Positions 18,872-24,194 are shown, counted from the first letter of the stretch. The stretch is DNA of 64,000 bases from an uncultured Pseudomonadota bacterium (GCA_900320405.1 OOHM01000001.1:203191-267190); one strand, 5' to 3'. A program made the numbers and translations. Notes: generated from the sequence alone by a model not told the origin.

Positions 18872-21800
18872 ATGCCAGAAATAAATGTTCGCAATAACAG
18901 TAATGTTCGTCGTACGACCGATGATAATTTGGTTGCGTTGGCAAAAAATATTGCGCGCGCATACCGTGAAATTGGTGTGCTGACCGAACGCGAATATAAC
19001 GCCGCAATGCGCGCAAATAATTTGGACGCAATAAACGATGTTATTGGTGATATTCCAAATATGGAATCTGAATTGCGTTTGCGGTTCTGCAAAAGTTTTG
19101 TTGGCAATGACACAGAAAATTTTAATGGCGCAACCCCTGCGATATTGACATACGCGTATATGGCAACGCGCGACGAAGACACGCCGATGGCACATGCGTT
19201 GGCGGCGCGCATTGATGATATGTCCGCAGATTTTGCAAATTCCGGCGGTATGGTTTTGGAAACCGGAACAAAATGGCCGTTGGTTGATATTACGAACATT
19301 GCCGATGTATACGAAGGGTTTTCTGATGCGTTAAATGCGCGTATTGCGGATTTAGATGCGGGGGCGGATGCCGAAAAAATTTCCCAGATGAAATCTAACC
19401 TGGCGCAAATGGAAACGGTGATTGCCGATTACGACCGTGCGTGGGGATTGGACAAAGTTCATGATACCGAAGCCCCGGAATATGGTAAACGTTGGGATAA
19501 ATTGAACGATGCGTTAAATCGTGCCGGATTGTTCGCGGCGACCAGGGATGCCGTAAAGAAATATAATTTTACAGATGAACACGGTGATGTTATTCCACAA
19601 ATCTTGGAAAACGGTGAATTGGACCAAGAAGGTCGTGCGGCGGCGATTTTGGATTTGGCGCGCGGCGATATTGCGCGTCGCCGCATTAGTACCGCAAACA
19701 AAAAACTTGATGCGAACGAAATTGAACAAGAATTAAACGATGAATTTTTGTTCAAATTGTACGAAACGGCAAATGCCGACAAAATCGTCAAAAAGGCCCA
19801 AGAAAATCCAGAGGTCTTTACAGACCCGCAAAGGCGGAATGATTTTGTTCGTGAAATGATGTCCCAAGGTGGCGATATTTCAGATACGGCGTACAATGCG
19901 GCGTTGGATTCGAACGCAAATGCCGTTGCCGGTTGGGCGGCGCGGTTAAAGGCAAAATTGGGCACGGCCGCAGACAATGTTGGTGGATTATGGAATAAGA
20001 TTTTTAACAAGAATCACGATGTCGATAGATTAAACAATGTTCGCATTGCGCCCCAAACCATTGATAAACGTCAAAAACGCATTGAATTGTTCAAACGTGT
20101 GTTAAAGGGATTTGCCAGTGGTTTTGTCGCCAGTATGATTATTACAACAATCGCGACTGCGGCGGCGGCAACGGCGGGAATATCGATGGCTGCATCTGTT
20201 GCGGCGATTGGGATTGTGACCGCGATTGGTATGGGCGTTGTCCAGGTTAATCGTTGGCGTCGTCGTCAACAAGATGCGGGTTTGCCAACCGATATTCGTG
20301 CATTCTTGGCGGATAAACGTCTTGTTATATCGCTTGGTGTGTCGGCAATCGCCGTTGTTGCGATGTGCTTTGGTGCCGGCGGAATGGCGGACGCCGCAAT
20401 GGCGTTGGGATATGGTGCGTTGGCATTGGGTGGAACCAAAAATGCAATTGAATCATATCGTGATGCGCGTGATTCCCGTATGTCTGTTGCAGAATCTATT
20501 GCATGGGCAATTGCGAACGCCGGTGCGGTTGTTGGTGGCGGATTGACGGGGCGTTATGTGGCGAATGTCGCGATAGACGCGTATAATAATGCAAATCCGG
20601 AAAACCGTTTGTTCCAAAATGCGACCGACCGCACGGTTGAACATACAAACACAACAACCGAGACGCGTACAGAATATACGGCCGATGCATTGGATAATGC
20701 GGAAAAAATTGCGCGTATGTGGTATCGTGATAACCCGGATATTCTGCAACAACGCGTAGATGCAATTAATGCGTATAACGCGGAACACGGAACAAATATC
20801 GACCCATATCGTGCGATTATGATAAATGGTGACGCGGGTGGTCAAACATTTGATAATATGCGCCTGCACGTCAATAACAGTCACATCGACCCGAATGTAA
20901 ATGATATATACAGTCACGGTCACCATCGTGTTTTGACCGATGCATGGGGACGCGCAAATGGATTTACGCACGAAGAATTGAATGCGGCGGCACGACTGTT
21001 TAACCCCGATGGTTCGGTAAATGCAAATGGTATGAATGTTGTATCGCGATTGGACGGTATGGTTGGTGAATCAAACACGGTTGGATATGTGGATGGACGT
21101 CCGGTTCAAACAGATGGATATTTCAAACCCAATGATGCGGCGGGTTGGACAACATACACCGATGGCCGCCCGGCGATGGTTGAAAATACATATGAAACAA
21201 CCGAAACAACATATGAAAATGTCACCGATTATACCCGTGCGCGCGGGGACGGTATGGCGGCGTATGGAAATTATAATCCCCGCGAACGCCGGACCAAATT
21301 GCGTGACCGTATCGGCACATTTTGGGACAGAATAAATAACGAAACCCCGCGTCGCGACGAACCAGTGACCGGAAAAGACGACAATCCGTTTACGCCGGTC
21401 GCAATTGAAAAACCGGTCCTTGAACCGGTGTTGGAAGACAAACCGTTGGATGAAGTTATTGCAGATGATGCGCCGGTGACGGAAAATCCGGATGTGAACT
21501 TTGATGACGTATTTGTTGCACCGGTTGATGCGGATAATGCGGAACGCGATGATGAAAAACCGAAAAACAATCCGTTTGATTTGTCGCCTGTTGCGCCGAT
21601 TGTCAAAGAAGAAAATCGGGACGATGTTTATACGCTGGACCCGGAAAACGAACCGGTTATTGAACCTGTATTGGATGACAATGAAAAGCCGGTCGCGGTC
21701 GCAGATGATAAAATTCTTGCACTGACCCGGCCCCAGGCCAAATCGTGGAAAGATTTGACTGAACGGCTTAAAAAGGTTCGTGCGAAACTGGATAAAGGTC

Positions 21801-23219: not shown

Positions 23220-24194
23220 ATGAATTTTTATGATATAATGTACGGTATGAGAAAGGGGATTTTAAGTTTTATTGTTGCGTCTGTTGCGCTGAATTCTGGG
23301 GCGGCATTGGCAAATTGGCAATATTCCGGTGAATATACATACGATATGTATGCGTATGATAATGGTGGTCGTGCATCGGTGTCAATTCGTGGTGGTGCAA
23401 CCTATGCGATGTCGAAAATGGGCAACGATGTTGGTTCTGTTGTGTATTCTTATTGTGTTGACCCGGTCACCGGTGAATTGTACGCCACGGAATCCGATGG
23501 TTCGTGTGCGTCGGGTTTGGACTATGCCGGAACCGGCAGCTTGGGCAGCCTGGGGATGAGTGATTTAGGTGAAATCGCATTCAGTGGCGGTGCAAGTATT
23601 GGTTGGATTTTGCCCGATCATCCGCAATGGCGTTTGGAATTGGGTTGGGATCATTTTTCCGAAGTTGACTATAATGAAACCCCGCTTTTTCACGGTGATA
23701 TGAAATTAAGTGGCGGTGCGGTTTATGACAATTTTGCGGCCGCGTCCGTTCAATCAACCATGTCCACAGATATCATCAGCGTTATGGCGTTTTATGATTT
23801 CTTTGATGGGTATGTAAAGCCGTTGCGTACAATGATTCCGTACATTGGAATTGGGTTTGGATATGCCGATACTAAAACGGTTATGAATATTGCCGATTTG
23901 TATGGAAACCTGTCTGATTTTGAAGATTTGACCAATTTTGGCGAATTGGATGGCGGGGTTATCCATTTTTATAAATCAACAACAAATACTTCAAATATCG
24001 CGGGTGTTGCGGCATTGGGATTTTCGTATGGATTGATTGATAATTTGTTCTTGGATTTTGGCGCACGTGTGTCATATCTGCCGCGTGTTAAATATCGCCT
24101 TACCAATGCGGATGACACGCGTCACCTTGATTGGTTCAGTGCCAAGAATTTGATATACGCCAATGTTATGGTTGGTGTGCGTTTGGAATTTTAA
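23220..24194 (+). CDS. outer membrane beta-barrel protein (start possibly at 23247)
   Basis: Signal peptide ILSFIVASVALNSGAALA. Alternating amphipathic strands. C-terminal ...VRLEF with terminal Phe, typical of BAM substrates. Confidence 0.6.
   Translation: MNFYDIMYGMRKGILSFIVASVALNSGAALANWQYSGEYTYDMYAYDNGGRASVSIRGGATYAMSKMGNDVGSVVYSYCVDPVTGELYATESDGSCASGLDYAGTGSLGSLGMSDLGEIAFSGGASIGWILPDHPQWRLELGWDHFSEVDYNETPLFHGDMKLSGGAVYDNFAAASVQSTMSTDIISVMAFYDFFDGYVKPLRTMIPYIGIGFGYADTKTVMNIADLYGNLSDFEDLTNFGELDGGVIHFYKSTTNTSNIAGVAALGFSYGLIDNLFLDFGARVSYLPRVKYRLTNADDTRHLDWFSAKNLIYANVMVGVRLEF

Follow-up and report, generated by a model that had tools for sequence, protein, structure and literature searches.

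What kind of protein is encoded by a 4.3-kb open reading frame (ORF) that stands amidst the housekeeping genes of an uncultured gut bacterium, and does it belong to a secretion apparatus, as a preliminary description of the same DNA had proposed? The ORF, termed gene A here (18872-23167, + strand), lies on a stretch of 64,000 nucleotides (GCA_900320405.1, OOHM01000001.1:203191-267190), which is called the window in the following and represents 64 kb of a genome of ~0.9 Mb; all statements on the gene content of this genome refer to those 64 kb. An ORF of 1431 amino acids (aa), as announced in the preliminary description, is indeed present. In all comparisons made, its product appears as an orphan polytopic membrane protein and as the founder of a new protein family of the bacterial order Rs-D84, without a detectable relative in any library searched. 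The attribute 'new' applies to the protein family and not to a mechanism. Our tentative answer is that A couples a cytoplasmic scaffold to an arm in the periplasm, and it is not a component of a known secretion system that the evidence points to.

A protein family without recognizable relatives

A word-indexed search yielded 77 relatives of A, nearly all of full length (~1,400 aa) and 97-32% identical, every one of them annotated as 'hypothetical' and devoid of Pfam domains. An exhaustive hidden Markov model (HMM) search, for which a profile of the core alignment was used, extended the family to 209 representatives at 50% clustering. The homologues stem exclusively from metagenome-assembled genomes of uncultured Alphaproteobacteria from animal guts, the best-named of these genomes being that of Candidatus Enterousia in the order Rs-D84. 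The host of the window is an uncultured gut alphaproteobacterium of the same order and belongs to the Candidatus Enterousia group. A was present in every related Rs-D84 locus recovered and was single in the window as well as in each of 18 further loci.

Members of Rs-D84 (Enterousia) are widely distributed in animal and human guts; their genomes comprise less than 1 Mbp and lack the tricarboxylic acid cycle, a respiratory chain and the standard uptake transporters for sugars, amino acids and peptides, and they encode many 'hypothetical membrane-bound proteins' that are suspected to act in transport or cell-cell interaction (PMC12306168). The order is recorded from lower termites and also from flagellate-free higher termites, and its members are therefore not simply protist endosymbionts.

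Scans of A and 14 divergent relatives against Pfam, NCBIfam and PHROGs returned nothing for A, and sequence-profile searches of the PDB with the whole family, the mid-domain or the C-terminal domain gave nothing below an E-value of 0.1. Structure prediction by AlphaFold2 (AF2), run with family alignments, provided two models that cover residues 1-830 and 931-1431 with predicted local distance difference test (pLDDT) values of 72 and 81, respectively. When both models were compared with the PDB by Foldseek, no match with E≤0.001 was obtained and TM-scores stayed below 0.3; for the core model against BFVD there was likewise no match with E≤0.001, with TM-scores below 0.2. A mobile or phage origin of A found no support in PLSDB plasmids, IMG/VR or GenBank phages, none of which contained a match. 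Orphan giant proteins are common in uncultured lineages.

The conserved unit of the family extends over approximately residues 1-850 and comprises a helical N-domain, five charge-free helices rich in small residues and an alpha/beta domain predicted to sit on a long beta-ribbon. Many relatives carry 80-500 additional N-terminal residues and end just past position 850, as exemplified by the 937-aa protein P0069. Other members depart further from this layout. The 2049-aa protein P0313 (encoded at 10001-16150 of the distantly related locus L017) contains ankyrin repeats at about residues 270-400 of a long N-terminal region, with the transmembrane (TM) cluster and the mid-domain at its extreme C-terminus, and P0266 (2245 aa) is equipped with PTPAPTPKP linkers and with a different domain that is present four times. 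The last domain of A does not occur in distant relatives, and a search with the profile of this C-domain alone retrieved one fragment and detected the domain in no other architecture. The existence of core-only relatives and of members with different ends therefore identifies the C-terminal half of A as a lineage-specific accessory.

Within A, conservation is distributed very unevenly. Column entropy is lowest in the TM cluster (~1.0-1.3) as compared with 1.4-2.7 elsewhere, and the invariant positions of this cluster are mostly Gly or Ala. As a whole, A is only 36-50% identical between loci as against 82-86% for ComM, LepB and BamA, which makes it the fastest-evolving gene of the neighborhood. 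For locus L002, for instance, identities amount to 38% for A, 84-86% for BamA and ComM, 83% for LepB, 73% for the adjacent Na/Ca exchanger and 64% for the product of gene B, which follows A.

Domain architecture and predicted membrane topology

The N-terminal part of A (residues 16-410; 18917-20101, +) is modelled exclusively as helices with pLDDT values of 80-90, which confirms the helical N-domain of about 400 aa claimed earlier. It is predicted to be cytoplasmic, and its composition resembles that of cytoplasmic proteins encoded in the window; a signal peptide was not found in A. There follow five hydrophobic helices, H1 to H5, rich in Gly, Ala, Ser and Thr (residues 413-560; 20108-20551, +), which emerge from hydropathy, insertion energetics and the entropy minimum and are predicted to form two tight hairpins and one further helix. 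AF2 places helices at residues 416-433, 439-468, 482-502, 506-520 and 539-558 at low pLDDT (40-60). Simple Hessa insertion sums are +1.8 for H1, +0.9 for H2, -0.5 for H3, +6.8 for H4 and +5.6 for H5. H1 to H3 equal the genuine TM helices of the neighboring Na/Ca exchanger, MurJ, RseP and CdsA in hydrophobicity, and H4 and H5 are marginal. The cluster of about five TM helices described previously can thus be retained as a hydrophobic cluster in which only three segments are strongly hydrophobic; since charged residues are practically missing from each of the five segments across 53 family members, the wording 'about five' is fair. Net charges of the flanks are +4.3 before H1, 0 in the 5-residue turn between H1 and H2, +3.9 between H2 and H3, 0 in the 3-residue turn between H3 and H4, +1.6 between H4 and H5 and +0.2 after H5. 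According to the positive-inside rule these charges therefore predict two hairpins and a fifth crossing, with the N-terminus inside and the C-terminus outside (N-in/C-out). A weak resemblance of H1/H2 (residues 428-464, ~20153-20263) to paramyxovirus F fusion peptides was not significant (E ~0.8), probably reflects the Ala/Gly/Thr-rich composition and was discarded.

Behind the helices, two beta-strands of 21 residues each (582-602 and 769-789) enclose an alpha/beta domain (604-760) that is modelled with pLDDT >90 and predicted to be periplasmic (20615-21238, + for the whole element). Judged from the DSSP string of the model, the two strands may pair into a long beta-ribbon. The mid-domain is rich in Asn, Thr, Ser, Gly, Tyr and Gln (41%) and poor in Lys, Arg, Glu, Leu and Ile, and in this respect it resembles the exported proteins BamA, RlpA and B of the window; it has no match in the PDB or in Pfam. 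Relatives that diverge in other parts have the same domain at their C-terminus, preceded by a long disordered spacer. In P0313, a disordered spacer of ~200 aa occupies the place of the ribbon, and the membrane-distal position of the mid-domain therefore seems to be the conserved feature. The family core ends with a conserved basic tail (residues 795-825, with G799, R813 and G815; 21254-21346, +), where many relatives stop.

The part that follows had been described as acidic Pro-rich repeats and a C-terminal domain of 450 aa, and both statements need to be modified. An acidic Pro-rich segment exists (residues 826-940; 21347-21691, +), with 27% Asp plus Glu and 13.5% Pro, and it is predicted to be disordered (pLDDT ~30). 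The motif PV(L/I)EPVL(E/D)D is present as PVLEPVLED at residue 848 and as PVIEPVLDD at residue 928. These two copies of nine residues are the only ones and are lost in relatives below ~60% identity, and the segment, with its high entropy and gap content, is better regarded as a variable spacer than as a repeat domain. The C-terminal portion is globular, as proposed, but not a single domain. AF2, a prediction that had been suggested as a check, resolves it into a basic four-helix region rich in Lys, Arg, Glu and Ala (residues 953-1065; 21728-22066, +; pLDDT 85-94), a disordered basic stretch (1101-1129), a long helix (1135-1163) and an alpha/beta domain of ~240 aa (1173-1417; 22388-23122, +) that is specific to Enterousia-type members. 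The latter is modelled confidently (pLDDT ~90) and has no PDB match by either fold or sequence. An acidic C-terminal tail is present in A.

Gene B and its relation to gene A

The outer membrane protein (OMP) encoded next to A had been regarded as dedicated to it. Gene B (23220-24194, +) is an ORF of 324 aa that ends in VRLEF and specifies a small outer membrane beta-barrel, as judged from its signal peptide with a cleavage-type site (NSGAALA/NW), amphipathic alternating strands and the C-terminal RLEF, the final residue of which (F324) is invariant in 36 sequences. The stated length is probably to be corrected to 315 aa, because homologues comprise 310-317 aa and because an extended -10 promoter element, TGATATAAT (TGnTATAAT; 23231-23239, +), is located 7 nt upstream of the ATG at 23247, which corresponds to M10. 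The B family is lineage-specific and has at least 418 members. When 36 of them were examined, weak matches were seen with PagL (14 of 36), OMP_b-brl (five) and Opacity (three), the best E-values being 3e-5 to 5e-4; the protein encoded in the window itself remains below every Pfam threshold.

The expression signals described here were read from the sequence. For gene A, a possible extended -10 promoter (TGTGATAAAAT, 18822-18832, +) precedes the Shine-Dalgarno sequence AGGGGGA (18857-18863, +), which is spaced 8 nt from the ATG and agrees with the preliminary description. So does the presence of a terminator of its own: directly after the TAA of gene A, the DNA can form a perfect hairpin (23166-23197, +) with the stem ATCACGGGA/TCCCGTGAT, the loop CATGT and a run of six T (predicted energy -18.9 kcal/mol). 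A hairpin followed by a T-run occupies the same position in the A-B spacer of all nine syntenic loci examined (9/9), with differing stem sequences. The extended -10 box 7-9 nt in front of the ATG of B recurs in the A-B spacers of several genomes (L001-L003, L005), and this distance suggests a leaderless or nearly leaderless mRNA. Given the conserved terminator and the promoter of its own, B does not form an operon with A and is, to judge from these signals, transcribed separately.

The genes A and B are adjacent in ten loci, and ComM, LepB and the exchanger are likewise retained in every one of these (10/10); no homologue of B was detected within 10 kb of A by an HMM of B in any of eight more distant loci (8/8), where the genes downstream of A are unrelated. 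Adjacency thus cannot be told apart from general synteny. Loci with B beside A are those in which A possesses the C-terminal arm, a correlation that is confounded by phylogeny. With a terminator between the genes, a separate promoter and the adjacency lost in distant loci, the attribute 'dedicated' is not supported, and a physical contact between A and B would be speculative.

Relation to type IV secretion

A had been compared with the expanded VirB6-like proteins of type IV secretion systems (T4SS) in Rickettsiales and alternatively with giant effectors or adhesins anchored in the inner membrane, and together with a VirB7/VirB8 module it had tentatively been assigned to one secretion apparatus. 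An anchorage of a giant protein in the inner membrane is compatible with the present evidence. The assignment to VirB6 has its attractions: about five TM helices with large extensions recall RvhB6 of Rickettsiales, a VirB8-family protein is encoded 7.8 kb from A, and T4SS genes are scattered around the genome in Rickettsiales. On this basis A could be a divergent VirB6-like subunit that acts with the VirB8-like module and the OMP B. This explanation is largely refuted and appears very improbable to us. The TrbL/VirB6 family PF04610, a comparison suggested in the preliminary description itself, is not matched by A at E≤1 nor by 14 relatives at E≤0.01, and an hhalign comparison of the A-family profile with VirB6 from the Agrobacterium fabrum plasmid pTiC58 gave a probability of 0.1% at an E-value of 0.55. 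The PDB includes solved T4SS complexes containing VirB6; a Foldseek search with the core model of A, the TM region of which is modelled at pLDDT 40-60, found no match in a copy of the database current to April 2026. Several tandem paralogues beside rvhB3/rvhB4, as in the RvhB6 expansion of Rickettsiales, were not found, A being single in the window and the 18 other loci. Furthermore, neither Pfam scans of 40 other ORFs across the window nor five related loci with gene calls and precomputed Pfam assignments revealed VirB3, VirB4, VirB9, VirB10, VirB11 or VirD4. A was consequently rejected as a VirB6 candidate and should not be annotated as such; a tempting mis-annotation is thus kept from spreading.

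The supposed VirB7/VirB8 module is a block of four genes behind bamA (8869-11232, - strand), which code for a generic lipoprotein of 48 aa, a half-length VirB8-family protein, an orphan of 217 aa with a single TM helix and a secreted orphan of 273 aa. The VirB8-family gene (10351-11085, -; 7.8 kb upstream of A) matches PF04335 with 28 bits against a gathering threshold of 23.2 over profile positions 11-104 of 213, and BLAST found no significant similarity to A. fabrum VirB8. Paralogy of the two VirB8-sized genes, i.e. those for the VirB8-family protein and the 217-aa orphan, was not detectable. The block follows bamA in every Rs-D84 locus in which that flank is covered and does so independently of A, so that there is no linkage that would unite the two in one apparatus. 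It takes the place of skp-lpxD-fabZ, the usual neighbors after bamA. The block may represent a lineage-specific module of outer membrane biogenesis or of the envelope rather than a T4SS remnant.

Proposed role and alternative explanations

We favor, though with reserve, the interpretation that A is a lineage-specific polytopic inner-membrane protein of N-in/C-out topology, by which a scaffold in the cytoplasm is coupled to an arm that spans the periplasm. The helical N-domain of 400 aa would stay in the cytoplasm, and the five small-residue helices, probably tightly packed and possibly oligomeric, would traverse the inner membrane in the form of two tight hairpins and a fifth helix. All of A beyond residue ~575 would reside in the periplasm, where a beta-ribbon of ~7 nm would hold the alpha/beta mid-domain off the membrane. 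In the Enterousia-type proteins, a further arm would be formed by the acidic Pro-rich spacer, the basic helical bundle and an alpha/beta head, and might extend as far as the peptidoglycan or the outer membrane. A would then serve as a trans-envelope coupling or scaffold protein in which a cytoplasmic interaction platform is linked to the outer layers of the envelope.

A number of observations weigh against this interpretation. In their composition, the helical bundle and the C-terminal domain resemble cytoplasmic proteins, and given that H4 and H5 are only marginal, the whole C-terminal half would be cytoplasmic if H5 did not span the membrane; AF2 confidence is low precisely in the TM region (pLDDT 40-60). 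A recognizable peptidoglycan-binding or outer membrane-binding domain was not found in A, and the function is deduced from architecture, on evidence drawn from 64 kb of the genome. Finally, ankyrin repeats as in the relative P0313 occur more typically in proteins that are sent into eukaryotic cells.

This last point leads over to the possibility that A is a translocated effector, exported by a dedicated system, whose hairpins would insert into the membrane of a partner or host such that both large flanks face the partner's cytosol, in the manner of chlamydial Inc proteins or of T3SS and T4SS effectors that contain TM segments. Two bilobed hairpins rich in Gly and Ala with tiny turns, an acidic C-terminal tail, modular and lineage-specific flanks including the ankyrin repeats of P0313, and by far the fastest evolution in the neighborhood (36-50% versus 82-86% identity) would all suit such a protein, as would the partner-dependent lifestyle suspected for Rs-D84 (PMC12306168). 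We nevertheless consider it unlikely, as a secretion system is present neither in the window nor near any homologue, and conservation within A peaks in the TM cluster and does not include the C-terminus. Furthermore, H1 to H3 are hydrophobic enough for normal insertion by Sec and the signal recognition particle, a level of hydrophobicity that secreted TM effectors tend to avoid, and ankyrin repeats are also used by bacteria in their own cytoplasm. The conservation peak at the TM cluster with its invariant Gly and Ala residues could instead point to an oligomeric channel or conduit, i.e. a pore built from helix clusters for metabolite uptake, which would replace the standard transporters for sugars, amino acids and peptides that Rs-D84 bacteria lack. 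The inability of AF2 to pack the helices confidently as a monomer fits this idea, and so does the fact that a gene for a Na/Ca exchanger adjoins A both in Enterousia-type loci and in the distant locus L017. The helices contain no polar or charged residues that could line a pore, however, Foldseek detected no similarity to a transporter fold in the PDB, and with ~1,250 of its 1,431 residues outside the membrane A would be an unusual transporter; such a function appears less probable still than that of an effector.

Least probable among the explanations weighed is an ejection or tape-measure-like component of a podovirus-like element. Long helices and hydrophobic segments rich in Gly and Ala are typical of tape-measure proteins, a homologue of A abuts a phage-like gene cluster in the loci L013 and L017, albeit at different ends, the same cluster occurs at 1-8467 of the window, and the best, non-significant fold match in BFVD is a tape-measure protein. 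The TM-score of this match is merely 0.09, a PHROG match or a homologue in IMG/VR or GenBank phages was not found, and in most loci A is placed among housekeeping genes, ~10 kb or more away from the cluster. The probability that is left after the favored interpretation and its four rivals, VirB6 included, falls to something else.

One may speculate further, and with little confidence, that the family is an envelope-spanning contact or extraction device of Rs-D84, an oligomer rooted in the inner membrane whose periplasmic arm would link these transporter-poor bacteria, perhaps via the adjacent lineage-specific OMP, to a partner cell or to the surface of the host. The fast-evolving modular ends, such as the ankyrin repeats and the repeated C-terminal domains, would then track partner specificity, and the family would constitute a new kind of machinery for inter-cellular interaction unrelated to known secretion systems. 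In any case, A is a leading candidate for a lineage-specific envelope or partner-interaction function that sustains the Rs-D84 lifestyle, and the domain map and topology prediction given here offer a concrete basis for constructs.

Genomic neighborhood

Gene A is surrounded by chromosomal housekeeping genes, with frr, uppS, cdsA, rseP and bamA upstream and comM, lepB and rnc downstream. The gene for a Na/Ca exchanger of the YrbG type (17858-18844, -) is divergent from A. Its annotated TTG start is probably placed 22 codons too early, because homologues comprise 307 aa. In Enterousia-type loci the two genes are divergent, and in L017, where all other neighbors differ, the exchanger gene is located downstream of the A homologue in tandem orientation (16194-17117).

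The first part of the window (1-8467) is occupied by a podovirus-like cluster of structural and packaging genes for scaffold, capsid, tail and terminase proteins. A tail protein is encoded at 57-677, and the head-tail connector (5844-7070) shows 27-41% identity to its counterparts in Pelagibacter and Methylophilales podophages and in a human-faecal phage contig. Three genes in inverted orientation, among them that for the replicative helicase DnaB (3431-4981, -), interrupt the large terminase and separate its middle part (1042-1635) from its C-terminal part (4899-5822). In L017 the beginning of this organization is found again, from the middle part of the terminase up to dnaB in the inverted block, and the cluster also occurs in L013, so that the element appears to be fixed in Rs-D84 and may have been domesticated.

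Two further observations concern genes remote from A. A large orphan ORF of 836 aa without Pfam match (55405-57915, -) is 25% identical to a gene for 1009 aa in L017, and in both genomes the acetate kinase gene is adjacent. The queuosine synthesis protein QueA (38319-39848, +) carries an N-terminal domain resembling DUF559 endonucleases, which is an unusual fusion.

Comparison with known systems

With VirB6/TrbL proteins (PF04610), RvhB6 included, A shares about five hydrophobic helices, large soluble extensions and the occurrence in a host-associated alphaproteobacterial lineage. It differs from them by the lack of sequence or profile similarity, with no PDB fold match found for the core model, by its single copy and by not being encoded together with virB genes. 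Moreover, the helices of A are predicted to form two tight hairpins, whereas VirB6 has a large periplasmic loop instead.

Protein B shares a signal peptide, amphipathic beta-strands, a C-terminal LEF and, in some family members, weak Pfam matches with the OMP_b-brl, PagL and Opacity families. At 315 aa it is longer than the classical eight-stranded barrels and presumably has long loops, and no relative was detected among PDB sequences.

With its bilobed hydrophobic hairpins and their minimal turns, its fast divergence and the variable interaction modules on its flanks, A recalls the Inc proteins of chlamydiae and secreted TM effectors in general. In A, H1/H2 and H3/H4 are in fact joined by uncharged turns of only 5 and 3 residues. 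On the other hand, A has five helices, its hydrophobic cluster stands out by conservation, unlike a generic anchor, and neither a secretion system nor a secretion signal was found in the window.

The closest parallels in design are offered by proteins that connect the inner membrane with outer layers of the envelope. TolA and TonB consist of an inner-membrane anchor, a Pro-rich or long helical spacer rich in Lys, Ala and Glu and a C-terminal alpha/beta domain, a layout that we propose for residues 826-1431 of A, where residues 826-940 do provide a Pro-rich spacer between anchor and C-terminal domain. A TonB_C or TolA domain was not detected in A by Pfam, PDB fold or PDB profile searches, and exbBD or tolQR genes are not present in the neighborhood. 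The anchor of A is a central five-helix cluster behind a 400-aa domain, while TolA and TonB are anchored by a single N-terminal helix, and the periplasmic location of the arm of A is a prediction. The polar or envelope landmark proteins PodJ, FimV and HubP have a single TM helix, and A lacks their LysM, Sel1/TPR or peptidoglycan-binding domains. It shares with them very large size, fast evolution and the combination of a membrane anchor and acidic low-complexity sequence with a helical or coiled-coil domain in the cytoplasm and another domain in the periplasm, both locations being predicted for A. As a trans-envelope coupling protein, A would resemble TolA, TonB and PodJ in design and not by ancestry.

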